Positions 2,778 through 51,894 of a stretch of 64,000 nt of DNA are shown piece after piece. Location of the stretch: the NCBI GenBank assembly GCA_024402765.1, contig JAKSTC010000003.1, positions 16,112 through 80,111 of the forward strand, in the 5' to 3' direction. A program made the translations under genes and the position numbers. Numbering within the stretch: the stretch's first letter is position 1; the number at the start of each line of letters is the position of its first letter. Under the pieces are notes generated by a model, which searched no databases, was not told the origin of the DNA, and worked only from the letters and a program-made list of their open reading frames with translations. This stretch comes from Alphaproteobacteria bacterium. GTDB lineage: Bacteria > Pseudomonadota > Alphaproteobacteria > Rs-D84.

Positions 2778-4820
2778 ATGCAATTTAAATCTTTCTGGCG
2801 TAAATTTTTAAATGTTATGTTTTGGGTGATAACCGGTGGAATCGGGGTGTTGGCGGTTACACTTTTGATATTTGGAAATGATTTACCTGACTATAAAAAT
2901 CTGGCGACTTATGCGCCACCAGTGGCATCGCGCCTGTATGCATCAGACGGTTCACTGCTCATAGAATATGCCGAAGAAAGACGCGTGTTCTTGGACTTTA
3001 ATGATATGCCACCACAACTGGTTAATGCGTTTATTGCCGCCGAAGATAAAAATTTCTGGACACATCCGGGAATTGATTTTATGGGTATTGTTCGTGCAAC
3101 CGCGAATAATATTATGCGCAAGGCGGGATTTGGTGGTGATTTTTCTGGGGCATCAACCATCACGCAACAGGTTGCAAAAAATTTCTTTTTAACATCTGAA
3201 CGCACCCTGTCGCGTAAGATTAAAGAGGCTATCCTAGCATTACGGCTCGAGCGTAGTTTTTCCAAACAACACATTATGACACTATATCTAAATCAGATAT
3301 TTTTGGGTGCGCGTGCGTATGGTGTTGCGTCGGCCGCATTGATGTATTTTAATAAACCTGTATCTGAATTAACTTTGTCTGAATGTGCGTTTTTAGCATC
3401 CCTGCCCAAGGCACCAAATGACAGGGCGCGTGCGGTTGAACGCCGTAATTATGTTTTGCGTCGTATGGTGGAAGAAGGCTTTATTACACAAGCACAGGCC
3501 ACAGAAGCCGCCGCCGAAGAATTAAATATCAATAGTGGCTTTACCGAACAAATGGAGGAAACATTCCAATATTTTGCCGAAGATGTTCGCCGCCAATTAT
3601 TGAATTCTTTGGGACGTGATGCTTTGTATAACCAGGGGTTATATATTAAAACAACGATTAATCCTGAATTGCAACGTGCGGCATCAAACGCATTGAACAA
3701 GGAATTGGATAATTATAATGCAGACAAATCAGATGAAAAATTACAGGGTGCAATATTTGCAATGAATCCGCATACTGGGCGCGTTGTCGCAATGTCAGGT
3801 GGCCGTAGTTTTAGGGAAAGTTCTTTTAACCGTGCAACCCAGGCATATCGTCAAATTGGTTCAACAATAAAGCCATTTGTGTATTTGGCGGCACTTGAAC
3901 GTGGTTATTCGCCAGAGGCATTATTGTTGGATGCGCCTATTGTTGGATGGCGTGAAAACGATACTTTATGGAAACCCGAAAATTATGATAAAAAGTTTTT
4001 AGGTGAGATACCACTTCGTCTGTCACTTGAAACATCGCGTAATGTTACGACCGTTAGATTGGTTCAACAAATTGGTGATATTAACGCGATAGATGTTGCA
4101 CAACGTTTTGGTGTGTATCCGCAAAATATGTCTGATATCAATTTATCCATGGCATTGGGATCTGGGGAAACGACATTGCAAAAATTGGTTTCTGGTTATT
4201 CTGCATTTGTAAATGGTGGACATGTTATTAAACCCAAATTAGTGGACTATGTTGAAGATAGGTATGGTAATGTTGTTGGGGGTGAAAAGACTAAAATGGA
4301 AAAATGGTCGCCAGATTCGTTGCCGACAATAGAAGAGAATGATTCAGAAACCTTATCTGATCCACAAAGTCTGTATCAGTTGGTATCAATATTACAGGGC
4401 GCAGTTGAACATGGTACCGGTAAACAGGCACGTGTGGCGGGTCGTACTATTGCAGGGAAAACAGGAACCACAAATGATGTTAAGGATGTTTGGTTTATCG
4501 GTTTTTCCAAGAATTTAATTACAGGTGTTTATTTGGGTTATGATACACCGCGTCCATTGGGTAAAGGGGCGGGATCGCACATGGCGGCGCGTGTTTTTGC
4601 AGAATTTATGACAACCGCACTCGCGAACGAAACGAATCAACCTTTTGCTGTGCCAGACGGCCTACATTTTGTGCGTGTGAATCGTGCAAATGGTGTTGCG
4701 GCAAGCCAATCATCCGATGGAATTATAATTTTAGAGGCTTTCAAAGAGGGTCAGGGACCAAATCCTGTTAACAGACAAACCGATGTAAACAAAAAAGCGG
4801 TTGTAGGTGGCGTATTTTAA
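2778..4820 (+). CDS. mrcA: Bifunctional class A penicillin-binding protein (PBP1A: glycosyltransferase plus transpeptidase)
   Basis: GT51 motifs (AAEDKNFWTHPGIDFMGIVRA, TITQQVAKN), SxxK (STIKPF) and KTGTT. N-terminal TM segment. ATG 2778 preferred over the TTG at 2727 used by the track. Confidence 0.9.
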   Translation: MQFKSFWRKFLNVMFWVITGGIGVLAVTLLIFGNDLPDYKNLATYAPPVASRLYASDGSLLIEYAEERRVFLDFNDMPPQLVNAFIAAEDKNFWTHPGIDFMGIVRATANNIMRKAGFGGDFSGASTITQQVAKNFFLTSERTLSRKIKEAILALRLERSFSKQHIMTLYLNQIFLGARAYGVASAALMYFNKPVSELTLSECAFLASLPKAPNDRARAVERRNYVLRRMVEEGFITQAQATEAAAEELNINSGFTEQMEETFQYFAEDVRRQLLNSLGRDALYNQGLYIKTTINPELQRAASNALNKELDNYNADKSDEKLQGAIFAMNPHTGRVVAMSGGRSFRESSFNRATQAYRQIGSTIKPFVYLAALERGYSPEALLLDAPIVGWRENDTLWKPENYDKKFLGEIPLRLSLETSRNVTTVRLVQQIGDINAIDVAQRFGVYPQNMSDINLSMALGSGETTLQKLVSGYSAFVNGGHVIKPKLVDYVEDRYGNVVGGEKTKMEKWSPDSLPTIEENDSETLSDPQSLYQLVSILQGAVEHGTGKQARVAGRTIAGKTGTTNDVKDVWFIGFSKNLITGVYLGYDTPRPLGKGAGSHMAARVFAEFMTTALANETNQPFAVPDGLHFVRVNRANGVAASQSSDGIIILEAFKEGQGPNPVNRQTDVNKKAVVGGVF

Positions 4821-8578: not shown

Positions 8579-8599
8579 TAGCGACAAGTAGGTATCTTT

Positions 8600-8692
8600 G
8601 TCATTGCGAGCGAAAGCGAAGCAATCCAGGTATAATAATGACAATGACATATTTACTGGATTGCCACGGTCGTTGCACTCTCTCGCAATGAC
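8600..8692. repeat. 93-bp palindromic (MITE/REP-like) element
   Basis: GTCATTGCGAG (8600-8610) pairs with CTCGCAATGAC (8682-8692), and CAATCCAG (8622-8629) pairs with CTGGATTG (8657-8664). The centres of the two arms have diverged. Confidence 0.7.
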
Positions 8693-8736
8693 AAAAGGCG
8701 TTCATGCCTTTTATAAAAATAAACAAAGGACAAACA

Positions 8737-48299: not shown

Positions 48300-50273
48300 T
48301 TAGAACAATTTAAATTTATAATTCGTTCCAACGCGGAAAGATGCTTTTGTATCTTTACCGAATCCTAAACCAACACCGGCATTTGCAGACCAGTTGTCAG
48401 TAATACCCAACGCTGCGCCAAATGCGACCGCTGATTTAGAATTATAGTTACCGTAACCCGCACCGACAGACATTTCACCACGTTGAACATTGGCGACCGC
48501 GACCGATGACAATGCGACAGAACTCGCGATACCTGCAGACAAGTTTTCATCCAATTCATTAACCTTGGAATCCAAAGCATTGATCTCGTTACGCAATTTA
48601 GCATCAGCAGCTATCATATTCTGACTCAAATCATTAATAGCTTCTGTATTTGCACTAATAGCACCAGATAGTGTTAATTCATCACTGTATTTAGCACTAC
48701 CTGCCAAGTTATAAATGCTGTTTGCAACAGAACCTTCTTTTCCTACACCGCCATTCAATGTAACAATTGCATCTGCATTAGTTTTTACTTGTGCATCAAT
48801 TTTGTTATCAGCGTCTGCCAAAGTATCTGTTGCAGAATAGTAATTACCAGCAACACGAGTTCCTTCTACACCTGTAGCACGGTCAGTTTCAACTTTAACA
48901 GCATAAGCAACTGAACCTTCTGTTTCTGCATCACCCTTCAATATGGCGATAGCAGATGTATTAGTTGCAATCGCATCTGCATTAGTTTTTACTTGTGCAT
49001 CAATTTTGTTATCAGCGTCTGCCAAAGTATCTGTTGCAGAATAGTAATTACCAGCAACACGAGTTCCTTCTACACCTGTAGCACGGTCAGTTTCAACTTT
49101 AACAGCATAAGCAACTGAACCTTCTGTTTCTGCATCACCCTTCAATGTGTCGATAGCATTTGTGTTTGTTGCAATCTGTGCGACTTTCTCTAAATCAATA
49201 CCAGAATTTGCGGCTGCTAACTGTTCAGTAGACAAAGCATTCTGTTTACCCGCTAATGCTGCACCAATAGTTCCTTCACTATCACCTGTCAATGATGTAG
49301 TGATAGCATCGTTTGCACGAGTATCAATTGCACCTGCCAAAGAATTGTCATAGGTATTTTTAGCTGTTTGTGCAGCGGTGTAATTGTCAAAAGATGTCTT
49401 GGATGCTTGCCATGAACCAACGGACTGTCTGTATGATTCTATCGCGTTATTTACAGCAATTTGGTCGTCTTTATATGCTTGTATAGCATTATTATATTTC
49501 GTATTTGCATCGTTATAATTAGATAAAACATTACCATATGCAACTAAGGCCTCCTTATAAGCGGTAAGTGCAGCGTTACCGTTTACAACAAGAGAATCGG
49601 GAAAAGTGGAAGTATATTCCTGTGTTTCACTGTTGTAAGACACATAGTTAGCCAATGTTTTACCATCTTCTATGCCATCAAATGTATATTGAGTTAATGC
49701 AGGGGCGATATCTATATTTACTGACGAAGCTCCACCAGCATAATACGTTGGGTTAACTTCATAATCATAGCCAGTTTTGGTTAATACAGGGGATTCTACA
49801 ATGTCAGTGGACTGCAATGGTGTGGGTGTGGCGGTGCCGCCTGTTGCTGCGGTTTTTTCATAGCTATATGTAGTAACATCAACGGTTATAGCTGTTGGTG
49901 TTTCTGCTGCATTGTCAATATCGTAACCCAATTTATATTCACCCAATGTTGTGCTTCCTGTTGAAAGTTCTAATTCTTGTGCTGTTGCTAATGGTTTATC
50001 CCCAGGGTTAGTAACTTCGCTTGTCGCTTTTTCGCCGTCAGAAAAAGAATAGGTTTCGCTATTCCAATTACTTGGTGTATATGAACCATCGCAATATTCT
50101 GGGGCACTACCTTCTGCAATTTGTGTGGCTAAAGATAACGGTTCGGTTAATGTTGTGTCTGCAACTGCGTTCGAAACCACTGCAAATGTTGCAATACCAG
50201 CCAAGAAAGCATGTTTCAATACCGCGCGGTATTGAGCAGTCAATTCTTTAATTGTTGTTTTTGATTGTCTCAT
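48300..50273 (-). CDS. Trimeric autotransporter adhesin (YadA-type C-terminal anchor)
   Basis: The C-terminal ~75 aa (ALSSVAVANVQRGEMSVGAGYGNYNSKSAVAFGAALGITDNWSANAGVGLGFGKDTKASFRVGTNYKFKLF) form a YadA-like anchor. There are repetitive stalk motifs. Signal region: MRQSKTTIKELTAQYRAVLKHAFLAGIATFAVVSNAVA. ATG 50273 has AAGGA upstream. Confidence 0.88.
   Translation of the reverse strand: MRQSKTTIKELTAQYRAVLKHAFLAGIATFAVVSNAVADTTLTEPLSLATQIAEGSAPEYCDGSYTPSNWNSETYSFSDGEKATSEVTNPGDKPLATAQELELSTGSTTLGEYKLGYDIDNAAETPTAITVDVTTYSYEKTAATGGTATPTPLQSTDIVESPVLTKTGYDYEVNPTYYAGGASSVNIDIAPALTQYTFDGIEDGKTLANYVSYNSETQEYTSTFPDSLVVNGNAALTAYKEALVAYGNVLSNYNDANTKYNNAIQAYKDDQIAVNNAIESYRQSVGSWQASKTSFDNYTAAQTAKNTYDNSLAGAIDTRANDAITTSLTGDSEGTIGAALAGKQNALSTEQLAAANSGIDLEKVAQIATNTNAIDTLKGDAETEGSVAYAVKVETDRATGVEGTRVAGNYYSATDTLADADNKIDAQVKTNADAIATNTSAIAILKGDAETEGSVAYAVKVETDRATGVEGTRVAGNYYSATDTLADADNKIDAQVKTNADAIVTLNGGVGKEGSVANSIYNLAGSAKYSDELTLSGAISANTEAINDLSQNMIAADAKLRNEINALDSKVNELDENLSAGIASSVALSSVAVANVQRGEMSVGAGYGNYNSKSAVAFGAALGITDNWSANAGVGLGFGKDTKASFRVGTNYKFKLF
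48769..49146. repeat. Tandem duplication inside the adhesin stalk (period 204 bp, 174 bp identical)
   Basis: 48769-48942 is identical by eye to 48973-49146. At protein level this is a duplicated 68-aa unit (LKGDAETEGSVAYAVKVETDRATGVEGTRVAGNYYSATDTLADADNKIDAQVKTNADAI). Confidence 0.9.
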
Positions 50274-50346
50274 TTTTTTTCCTTTTGTTTTGGTTAACCA
50301 AAGAAGGCTATGAAATTCATTCCCCTCTTGTAAAAAAAAACGGTAC

Positions 50347-50372
50347 AAAAACCTAGGTTAAAATGTTACCAC
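50347..50372. repeat. Inverted repeat, left copy (candidate recombinase site)
   Basis: AAAAACCTAGGTTAAAATGTTACCAC; contains the perfect palindrome AACCTAGGTT. Confidence 0.8.
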
Positions 50373-50393
50373 CCCAAAATATTTTATTGTCAA
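50363..50393 (-). promoter_or_regulatory. Promoter-like element inside the repeat-bracketed segment, pointing toward the adhesin gene
   Basis: Minus strand reads TTGACA (50393-50388), a 19-nt spacer, then TGG-TAACAT (an extended -10-like element). The spacer length is suboptimal. Confidence 0.3.
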
Positions 50394-50466
50394 CAACCAA
50401 TCTGCTATAACACACAGAATTCTGCGGTTTTTTATGATTTGCAAAAAATGAAATTTTTTGAAAAAA

Positions 50467-50492
50467 GTGGTTGACTTTTAACCTAGGTTTTT
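50467..50492. repeat. Inverted repeat, right copy
   Basis: GTGGTTGACTTTTAACCTAGGTTTTT. Its reverse complement matches the left copy at 17/17 core positions and 22/26 overall. Confidence 0.8.
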
Positions 50493-50520
50493 TTTCCACC
50501 ACTTTGTATTTAGAAAAACA

Positions 50521-50549
50521 TTGATTTTTTATTGCTTTTCTGGTATAAT
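50521..50549 (+). promoter_or_regulatory. Promoter candidate for the recombinase gene
   Basis: TTGATT, 17-nt spacer, TATAAT, with TGG immediately upstream of the -10. Confidence 0.5.
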
Positions 50550-50658
50550 CACCAAATGTGCATGCAATTAATTTTGCGTGCTTTTTTTGTGCAAATTTGT
50601 TAGCCATTTTTTTACATAATAAAAAGATAGAAAATATCAGAAATCAAAGGAGTATAGT

Positions 50659-51261
50659 ATGATTTATGGTTATTGTCGCGTATCAACAGCACACCAACAT
50701 GAAGAAAATCAGCACTTTGTTATCGAAAAATTCGCAAATAAAAATGATATAAAAATTGATGAATGGGTCGAAGAAAAAATTTCAAGTAGTAAAAAATTAT
50801 CTGATCGAAAATTAAGCATAATTTTAGCAAAATTAAAACCTGGCGATATTTTAATTACTACGGAAATATCACGTCTGGGCCGCAGTTTGCTGGAGGTTAT
50901 GTCAATATTACAAATGTGCCTCGAAAAAGAATGTCAGGTATGGACATTAAAAGAAAATTTTAGGCTGGGCGCCGATATTCAATCCAAGGTGTTGGCATTT
51001 GCGTTCGGGCTTTCTGCGGAATTGTCTAAAAGTTTGCTGCAGGAACGGGTGCGGGAAAGTTTGGCACGCAGACGTGCATCGGGTAAAAGGTTAGGGCGAC
51101 CACGTGGCGCAAAATCTAAAACATTAAAATTAGGAAAAAATAAAAAAAAGGTTAAGGGTTTGATTGGCAAAGGCATTAGTAAAAATCAAATCTGCAAAAT
51201 AATGAATGTAAGTAAAAAAACTTTGACTGCCTTTATACAACAGGAAACAGTGGGGCTTTAA
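50659..51261 (+). CDS. Small serine recombinase (resolvase/invertase family)
   Basis: MIYGYCRVSTAHQ (catalytic Ser), ISRLGRS, a Gly/Arg-rich linker (RLGRPRGAKS) and a C-terminal HTH (GISKNQICKIMNVSKKTL). 200 aa. AAAGGAG RBS. Confidence 0.88.
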   Translation: MIYGYCRVSTAHQHEENQHFVIEKFANKNDIKIDEWVEEKISSSKKLSDRKLSIILAKLKPGDILITTEISRLGRSLLEVMSILQMCLEKECQVWTLKENFRLGADIQSKVLAFAFGLSAELSKSLLQERVRESLARRRASGKRLGRPRGAKSKTLKLGKNKKKVKGLIGKGISKNQICKIMNVSKKTLTAFIQQETVGL

Positions 51262-51323: not shown

Positions 51324-51608
51324 ATGGCGACAATAACAAGAAATGATTTTGCTAATAATTTGCGTGAACGTTTTGGGTTGACTATGGCGGACGCATATAA
51401 ATTAATAGATATTATTTTTGAAGAAATTTCAGAATCCCTGTCGCGCGAAGAAGAAGTGAAGTTCGCAGGTTTGGGAACTTTTAAAATTTTAACAAAATCT
51501 GCACGTATTGGACGCAACCCAAAAACAGGTGCGTCTGCGATAATTTCTGCACGTCGTGTGGCGGCATTTCGTCCATCGGCTGAATTTCGTGCGCGTGTGG
51601 CAAAATAA
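51324..51608 (+). CDS. ihfA: Integration host factor alpha-like (HU/IHF family) DNA-bending protein
   Basis: GLGTFKILTKSARIGRNPKTGASAIISARRVAAFRPSAEFR. The RRV..FRP arm is the IHF-alpha pattern. Confidence 0.7.
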   Translation: MATITRNDFANNLRERFGLTMADAYKLIDIIFEEISESLSREEEVKFAGLGTFKILTKSARIGRNPKTGASAIISARRVAAFRPSAEFRARVAK

Positions 51609-51621
51609 AAAGGATGACAAA

Positions 51622-51894
51622 ATGGCAAAAGAACAAAATCAAAATGTGTATCAACGCACAATTTGGGACGAATTAGAAGATGGGTACAAAGAAAAATTGG
51701 CTGCGGCAGAAAAGCAAATCAAAGATGCAGAAAAACAAGTTGCAAGTGATGAAACTGCGTTGAATAATAATCGCGTTCCAAAAAATGAACTGCCTGAACT
51801 GCAAAATGATTTGCGTGAATCACAAAAGGCATTAAGTGAGGCCGAAAAGCAAAGAGATATGATATTAACTGAATTACAAGATTTAGAAAAATAA
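51622..51894 (+). CDS. Hypothetical coiled-coil protein (90 aa)
   Basis: ATG 51622 is preceded by AAAGGA. The sequence is heptad-rich and Lys/Glu/Gln-rich. Confidence 0.5.
   Translation: MAKEQNQNVYQRTIWDELEDGYKEKLAAAEKQIKDAEKQVASDETALNNNRVPKNELPELQNDLRESQKALSEAEKQRDMILTELQDLEK

Follow-up and report, generated by a model that had tools for sequence, protein, structure and literature searches.

Several described inversion systems resemble the locus considered here. Mpi of Bacteroides fragilis and other Bacteroidales is a serine recombinase that inverts short promoter segments bounded by inverted repeats and controls surface structures in a gut bacterium; one report gives the number of its distant target sites as about 13 (PMC6083910, citing Coyne 2003). 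The invertases Hin, Gin, Cin and Pin are small serine recombinases with a C-terminal helix-turn-helix (HTH), acting on inverted 26-bp crossover sites in which a 2-bp centre sets the polarity. In uropathogenic Escherichia coli, UpaE, an adhesin of the autotransporter class, is driven by ipuS, which is, like fimS, an invertible element that phase-varies and lies next to a recombinase gene. The recombinases of this system are tyrosine recombinases and the whole promoter lies on the element (PMC6083910), as also holds for fimS-type promoters. UpaE is described in the same paper as a 271-kDa autotransporter and is not called trimeric, the term “trimeric autotransporter” occurring there only in the cited UpaG reference. 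Of the known cases in which an invertible element governs an autotransporter, ipuS/UpaE comes closest. The locus analysed here lies in a stretch of 64,000 nucleotides (hereafter, the window; contig JAKSTC010000003.1, positions 16,112 to 80,111) and consists of two inverted repeats placed between the divergent genes of a YadA-type trimeric autotransporter adhesin and of a serine recombinase. We consider it quite probable that this is a site-specific inversion switch, which phase-varies the single YadA-type adhesin by means of a promoter split across a recombination site.

The bacterium from which the window comes is a Candidatus Enterousia-like alphaproteobacterium of the gut or rumen, belonging to the order Rs-D84 and having a reduced genome. 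Enterousia, a member of this order, is uncultured, has a genome smaller than 1 Mb, and is widespread in the animal and human gut (PMC12306168). Homologues of the window’s recombinase are found by the hundreds, at 73–88% identity, in metagenome-assembled genomes (MAGs) labelled Alphaproteobacteria or Candidatus Enterousia, the sources of which are rumen, horse, chicken, and human gut. The comparison presented below covers 29 loci, namely the window and 28 related loci with a recombinase at least 69% identical to that of the window; individual loci are referred to by L numbers. In all 29, a pair of AACC-WW-GGTT sites, 106–133 bp apart, is located upstream of the recombinase gene. The conserved module consists of a YadA-anchor adhesin gene, the two AACC-WW-GGTT sites, and the divergent serine recombinase gene. 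The original prediction, made from the letters of the window, had proposed an invertible promoter and a search of related genomes for such repeats beside recombinase/adhesin pairs; in this search the module recurs, and both of its orientations are present.

In the publications on Enterousia that were searched, no description of phase variation turned up. This system was also not found among the searched publications that combine “hybrid promoter” with “invertible”, nor in the examined part of those that combine “trimeric autotransporter” with “invertible”. The main text of the DeepInverton survey contains neither the word “autotransporter” nor the word “adhesin”.

Inverted Repeats and Natural Inversion of the Segment

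The repeat can be read in the window as it had been described: AAAAACCTAGGTTAAAA at 50347–50363 has an exact reverse complement at 50476–50492 (17/17), the inverted match extends to 22 of 26 positions (50347–50372 versus 50467–50492), and each copy contains a perfect 10-bp palindrome. In a repeat search the arms were extended to 31 nt (50342–50372 and 50467–50497), being 81% complementary and leaving 94 nt between them. This is the sole inverted repeat in the 64-kb window with at least 15 exact bases within 250 bp of each other. Exact copies of AACCTAGGTT occur in the window only at 50350 and 50480, and a 17-mer inverted repeat was obtained in none of 100 first-order Markov shuffles of the window. 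The repeat is not due to chance. Two crossover sites of 26 bp, neither assigned to a strand, are defined by it. The left one (50342–50367) has the core AACC-TA-GGTT at 50350–50359, with its centre at 50354/50355, conserved as AACC-WW-GGTT in 29 species; the right one (50472–50497) has the same core at 50480–50489, with its centre at 50484/50485. The invertible segment, likewise without a strand, is measured from centre to centre (50355–50484) and comprises 130 bp.

No further pair of AACC-WW-GGTT sites was found in the window with up to two mismatches allowed, and in 80 loci (1.3 Mb in total) the 10 kb to either side contained none apart from the local switch. The extra single AACCWWGGTT matches in these loci fall in coding sequence and look like chance. 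A search of the region 50000–51000 against Rfam gave nothing meaningful. A metagenome search with GGTTGACTTTTAACCWWGGTT returned three unrelated chance matches, from which neither a census of orientations nor distal sites were obtained.

The claim of an invertible switch is borne out by related genomes, in which both orientations are found between identical flanks, and the segment almost certainly inverts. L008 and L009 come from two MAGs that belong to the same species. Over 1 kb, the flanks of this pair agree at 99.9% and 98.5%, and the interior of 101 bp is 29% identical when aligned directly and 98% identical when one copy is reverse-complemented. In BLAST, the interior forms a separate minus-strand match extending exactly from core to core. 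The pair L088 and L096 gives the same picture, with flanks that are 98.7–100% identical and an interior that is 100% identical as the reverse complement. A third pair, L101 and L107, also presents both segment orientations between unchanged flanks. Across species, the segment end bearing TTGAC is placed beside the recombinase in 23 and beside the adhesin in 6. Of 20 contigs from independent samples in which the encoded recombinase is identical (P0004 or P0007), 17 agree in orientation and 3 are flipped. Since the flipped contigs belong to different sub-lineages, the inversion has recurred. Weaker support comes from contig breaks: two Logan contigs, L001 (identical to the window) and L003, start within the right site, and the MAG contig L006 starts directly after a left core. 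L084 and the record Q60q5VY3 were also considered as assembly breaks at the repeats and were rejected, each being a single CDS or open reading frame (ORF) in length (L084 equals the ORF 48300–50348).

The central dinucleotides of the left and right sites are AA/TT in most loci, TT/AA in L020 and L023, and TA/TA in the window and about ten others. They match up in 28 of the 29 site pairs, with L002 as the exception, and after inversion the left site still reads AA and the right one TT. A 2-bp staggered exchange in the middle of the site would require just this covariation, and we infer that cleavage occurs at the central dinucleotide. The symmetric TA core of the window had been listed as a caveat; it does not count against function, because TA/TA is one of the three co-varying core states and is therefore normal. 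The same holds for the shortness of the segment, the length of 106–133 bp being conserved.

It might be argued that the perfect 10-bp palindrome in each copy is an operator of a dimeric transcription factor and that no DNA inversion takes place. In most species the outer right half-site abuts the recombinase promoter, and a protein bound there may repress it. However, both interior orientations exist between identical flanks in several lineages, and the central dinucleotides co-vary as strand exchange, and not operator binding, would require, which makes this explanation extremely improbable. Hardly more credible is the proposal that the repeats delimit a miniature transposable element or a Tn3-type res region, or that the inversions are assembly artefacts. 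The structure is indeed short and has flanking inverted repeats, and resolvase-family enzymes are common on transposons. Nevertheless, there is no transposase among the neighbouring genes, the setting is chromosomal (rpoB/rpoC-sized ORFs, plsX, and an M13 peptidase gene lie close by), and each locus has a single copy of the element, in every case placed between genes of the same two types. The systems of Tn3 and gamma-delta resolvase provide no match, as the window contains two single inverted crossover sites and not a res of three direct-repeat subsites. Concerning artefacts, the exact repeats of 14–17 bp are far below the assembly k-mers (k141 for some contigs), so that a flipped contig would require real junction-spanning reads.

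The Recombinase and its Known Relatives

The recombinase gene (50659–51261, plus strand) encodes a protein of 200 aa with the Pfam domains Resolvase and HTH_7, the catalytic motif YGYCRVS, and a C-terminal HTH. Its identification as a serine recombinase agrees with these domains, and the family can now be named. The protein scores 262.4 bits against NCBIfam NF009949 (master DNA invertase Mpi family) over residues 1–197 of 203, about 10 bits short of the equivalog cut-off of 272, and no other family comes near this score. It is 46% identical, without gaps, to the Mpi-family protein of P. distasonis. The nearest annotated relatives on plasmid-labelled records are 46–54% identical, are all named Mpi family, and come from Parabacteroides, Prevotella, Pedobacter, Treponema, Desulforapulum, and other hosts. 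Identity to Gin is 29%; in a comparison with sequences of the PDB, the score was 40 bits for Gin and 33 bits for gamma-delta resolvase. No catalytic residue varies among 28 homologues of the recombinase. Judged by sequence, the enzyme belongs to the Mpi family.

The likeness to the Bacteroidales systems, which extends from the recombinase family to the short invertible segments with inverted repeats, here putatively carrying promoter function, and to the probable control of surface structures in a gut bacterium, is accompanied by several differences. In contrast to Mpi with its distant targets, the enzyme adjoins one apparently dedicated switch (one site pair in the 64-kb window and none further in the 1.3 Mb of related loci). 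The consensus of the Mpi repeats is ARACGTWCGT, whereas the site core here is AACC-WW-GGTT; no repeat pair was seen adjacent to the Mpi-family genes of Parabacteroides and the other Bacteroidales inspected. The segment is shorter (106–133 bp), the promoter seems to straddle the site instead of lying wholly within the segment, and the host is an alphaproteobacterium.

The sites themselves resemble those of the Hin/Gin group. Besides their length of 26 bp, their inverted arrangement, and the 2-bp centre, the window sites have in common with the gix sites of phage Mu the inner core AAACCnnGGTTT; the sequences read from the Mu genome are TTATCCAAAACCTCGGTTTACAGGAA and TTCCTGTAAACCGAGGTTTTGGATAA (gixL and gixR). 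The differences lie in the low identity to Gin, in the length of the segment, which is about 0.1 kb and not 1–4 kb, and in the position of the recombinase gene outside the segment. To our knowledge, the segments described here are the shortest for a serine invertase. In comparison with ipuS and fimS, the invertase is of the serine type and the promoter is apparently split.

Distant paralogues of the recombinase (54–70% identity; L064, L066, L076, L082, and L039) also have upstream pairs of inverted repeats, about 110–140 bp apart, the cores of which differ (AAACCAACGTTTA and TAAACCACCGTTTA, for example). Two or three paralogues are present in some genomes (L029, L033, and L055 in SIG52; L007 and L057 on one contig). 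The paralogues with their differing cores suggest a family of switches, the sites of which co-evolve with their enzymes.

The Adhesin Gene Beside the Switch

The trimeric-autotransporter-type adhesin gene (48300–50273, minus strand) encodes 657 aa with an extended signal peptide and a C-terminal YadA-like anchor. The anchor is recognized by Pfam YadA_anchor PF03895 with 34.6 bits against a cut-off of 22.7 (E 2e-8), and no head or stalk domain was matched in the Pfam scan. A divergent left gene with a YadA-like C-terminal anchor, encoding a secreted protein of 470–800 aa, is found in 23–24 loci, and its ATG lies 66–83 nt from the left core. There is exactly one YadA-anchor gene per locus, always beside the switch. 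The suggested position of the switch upstream of a trimeric-autotransporter-type adhesin thus holds in at least 23 species, and the switch very probably controls this gene. The anchor is 52–90% identical across loci, and the passenger region is essentially unalignable. The N-termini of the adhesins take two recurring forms, MKKHLILTSL... and M(I/L)RQSKTTIKELSAQYR.... The unalignable passengers and the two N-termini suggest strong diversifying selection or cassette exchange.

In L002, L007, L023, L026, and L037 the switch adjoins non-adhesin genes. L002 is the closest relative of the window that has the full switch, and the neighbouring gene there encodes a Cys-rich secreted protein of 242 aa and not a YadA-type adhesin. 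In L007 and L023, the recombinase leader is just 49 nt and the left neighbour is a non-adhesin gene (in L023 it encodes 335 aa with numerous HTH-like repeats), so that coupling of the module to other genes does occur at times.

A Promoter Proposed to Be Divided by the Crossover Site

As assembled, the segment carries near its right end a putative half of a promoter (50461–50476, plus strand), consisting of an A-tract at 50461–50466 and a -35 hexamer TTGACT at 50471–50476, which is located 3 bp from the right core and reads outward. AAAaTGGTTGACTTTT, followed by the AACC core, is the most conserved part of the interior (29 of 29 species), and TTGA(C/T)N is always placed 3 nt from the core. The putative second half lies in the fixed flank on the adhesin side, where the window has the -10-like hexamer TACCGT at 50345–50340 on the minus strand. 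In the flipped state, a TAnnnT hexamer would stand 16–18 bp (mostly 17) past TTGAC in 27 of the 29 loci, the adhesin-side hexamers including TACCAT, TACCGT, TATACT, TACAAT, TAACAT, and TAGAAT. At the equivalent position of the recombinase-side flank, TAnnnT was found in none of the 29. The TAnnnT pattern is kept even where GGTA, the probable half-site motif of the recombinase, is lost. Both orientations were also built in silico for each locus, the flipped left junction of the window being GGTACAAAAACCTAGGTTAAAAGTCAACCAC, and the best sigma-70-like promoter directed toward the adhesin was scored. This promoter was stronger with TTGAC beside the adhesin in 24 loci, equal in 5, and weaker in none, and it was almost always the hybrid -35/-10. 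It had been claimed that the assembly is in the ON state. The hybrid promoter, the sole promoter layout that is conserved across species, would form only when the segment is flipped, and as its -35 and -10 meet only in that opposite orientation, the window is probably OFF. Motif comparison makes it moderately likely that the promoter is split across the crossover site and that the window is in the OFF state. Insertion-sequence ends with an outward -35 are known to form hybrid promoters with a resident -10 at 17-bp spacing; the mobile part here is, in contrast, a reversible segment, and the promoter would be assembled and dismantled by site-specific recombination.

The claim of an ON state had been based on an internal promoter candidate, TTGACA-N19-(TGG)TAACAT (50363–50393, minus strand), with TTGACA at 50393–50388 and TAACAT at 50368–50363. 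If this complete promoter, TTGACA-N19-TGGTAACAT with the latter at 50371–50363, reads to the adhesin, then the window is ON and a flip would turn the gene OFF. We regard this as unlikely. The elements do exist in the window, TTGACA is also present at the equivalent place in L020, and the TTGACA-containing block 50369–50395 is 100% identical in L002 despite a diverged interior; moreover, the majority orientation of the assemblies would be ON. Against this, the spacer is 19 nt long, and the -10 is not conserved, reading TGCAAT in L002, without the key A at position 2. The candidate is lineage-specific, being located in an insertion of about 21 nt restricted to close relatives of the window and missing in 26 of the 29 species, none of which has a comparable internal promoter; what all species have in common is the TTGAC at the opposite segment end. 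Over the 27 nt of the block 50369–50395 (ccaccccaaaatattttattgtcaaca), the window and L002 agree completely, against an identity of roughly 70%, judged by eye, for the remaining interior; given this agreement, the block has some function.

The recombinase has a promoter of its own outside the switch, TTGATT-N17-TATAAT (50521–50549, plus strand), which had been pointed out before and was recovered in a promoter scan with 10 of 12 matches and a TG. In other species, the equivalent promoter is CTTGAmA-N16/17-TATAT and in most of them begins 13 nt past the right core. There, the CTTGAmA -35 adjoins the outer right half-site; in the clade of the window it is displaced about 18 nt further, with TTGATT at 50521. 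As the -35 adjoins this half-site, the bound recombinase could repress its own gene. Between promoter and start codon, a terminator-like hairpin with a T-run (50560–50588, plus strand) forms a possible attenuator. A leader hairpin with a T-run is present in at least 21 of the 29 species with differing stems (CAGGC/GCCTG, GGTGCC/GGCACC, GCATGC/GCGTGC); it probably limits the expression of the invertase.

These features bear on the question of whether the switch, though real, has its main output elsewhere than in the adhesin, for example in control of the recombinase operon, or whether it sets two levels, high and low, rather than ON and OFF. In the common orientation the A-tract and TTGAC are brought to about 30 bp upstream of the recombinase promoter, and the non-adhesin neighbours of L002, L007, L023, L026, and L037 would agree with another output. 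However, the recombinase possesses a complete promoter and a leader terminator of its own, none of the 29 loci offers the mobile -35 a partner -10 on the recombinase side, and at least 23 loci retain the link to the adhesin. Such an output is, in our estimation, distinctly improbable.

The half-sites follow a constant pattern in all 29 loci: GGT-N5-AACC in the outer-left half-site and in the inner one without TTGAC, and GGT-N8-AACC in the inner half-site with TTGAC and in the outer-right one. Both sites are thereby internally symmetric in the common orientation and hybrid in the flipped one, an asymmetry that might bias the direction of switching.

Proposed Mechanism

In the mechanism that we prefer, inversion of a split promoter upstream of the adhesin, the Mpi-family invertase would bind the two 26-bp inverted sites centred at 50354/55 and 50484/85, cut them at the central dinucleotide, and invert the intervening 130 bp. 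The flip would put the TTGACT -35 beside the adhesin flank, the crossover core serving as the 17-bp spacer, so that the promoter would be complete and the adhesin ON. In the assembled orientation, the -35 would face the recombinase side without a -10, and the adhesin would be OFF or expressed at a low level. The recombinase would be transcribed from its own fixed promoter through the hairpin leader, and switching would probably be kept rare.

Several points speak against this mechanism or parts of it. We infer the ON and OFF states from matches to promoter consensus, and for the window alone both states obtain equal promoter scores. As a -10, TACCGT/TACCAT is weak; it overlaps the probable recombinase half-site (GGTA), for which reason its conservation could partly reflect binding of the recombinase. 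OFF would have to be the majority orientation in assemblies, and the internal TTGACA-N19-TGGTAACAT could allow basal or alternative expression as the segment now stands. The species of the window has been seen in one orientation only. The cores of L002 are mismatched (AA versus TA, at positions 3078 and 3208) in a contig with 2.4x coverage; the switch of L002 may be locked or decaying, or the mismatch may be an error in this contig. The loop of about 110–130 bp that a serine recombinase would have to close is short, and a curvature test of A-tract phasing in the interior gave no clean periodicity of 10–10.5 bp. The fullest form of the proposal, in which the crossover site is the promoter spacer of a dedicated, vertically conserved cis switch with a leader attenuator for a single hypervariable trimeric autotransporter, we regard as evenly poised between acceptance and rejection.

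Neighbouring Features

An IHF-alpha-like gene (51324–51608, plus strand; NF001401, 98 bits against a cut-off of 111) directly follows the recombinase gene, as had been remarked. Its presence stands, but a part in the system does not: the gene adjoins the recombinase only in the window, L001, L006, L013, and L020, and zapA takes this place elsewhere. As an accessory factor of the module it was rejected, the synteny being confined to the clade of the window; it is probably a housekeeping ihfA and no dedicated accessory. A Lys/Glu-rich ORF of 90 aa (51622–51894) comes after it, without a family match, conserved in L001 and weakly (38% identity) in L013.

Other inverted 14-mers of the window, at 8596/8681 and 26774/26833, are unrelated to the switch. 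At about 8590–8700, between tRNA-Arg and the next ORF, there is a palindrome like a miniature transposable element, gtcattgcgagcgaaagcgaagcaatccag ... ctggattgccacggtcg ... ctcgcaatgac, also unrelated to it.

Significance

The locus is a known kind of switch, found in a new lineage and with an unusual layout. It extends Mpi-family invertases outside the Bacteroidota and pairs them with site cores of the Hin/Gin type. The combination of a mobile -35, a fixed -10, and a recombination site as the spacer could serve synthetic recombinase logic, and the orientation of the switch is a marker that can be read from any metagenome. That a streamlined genome of less than 1 Mb retains an invertase conserved at 74–88%, together with its switch and a single hypervariable adhesin, suggests a central role of phase-variable attachment in the lifestyle of these bacteria. 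If the dedicated switch with the crossover site as promoter spacer is real, then this lifestyle would depend on reversible attachment to a host or to a partner cell.

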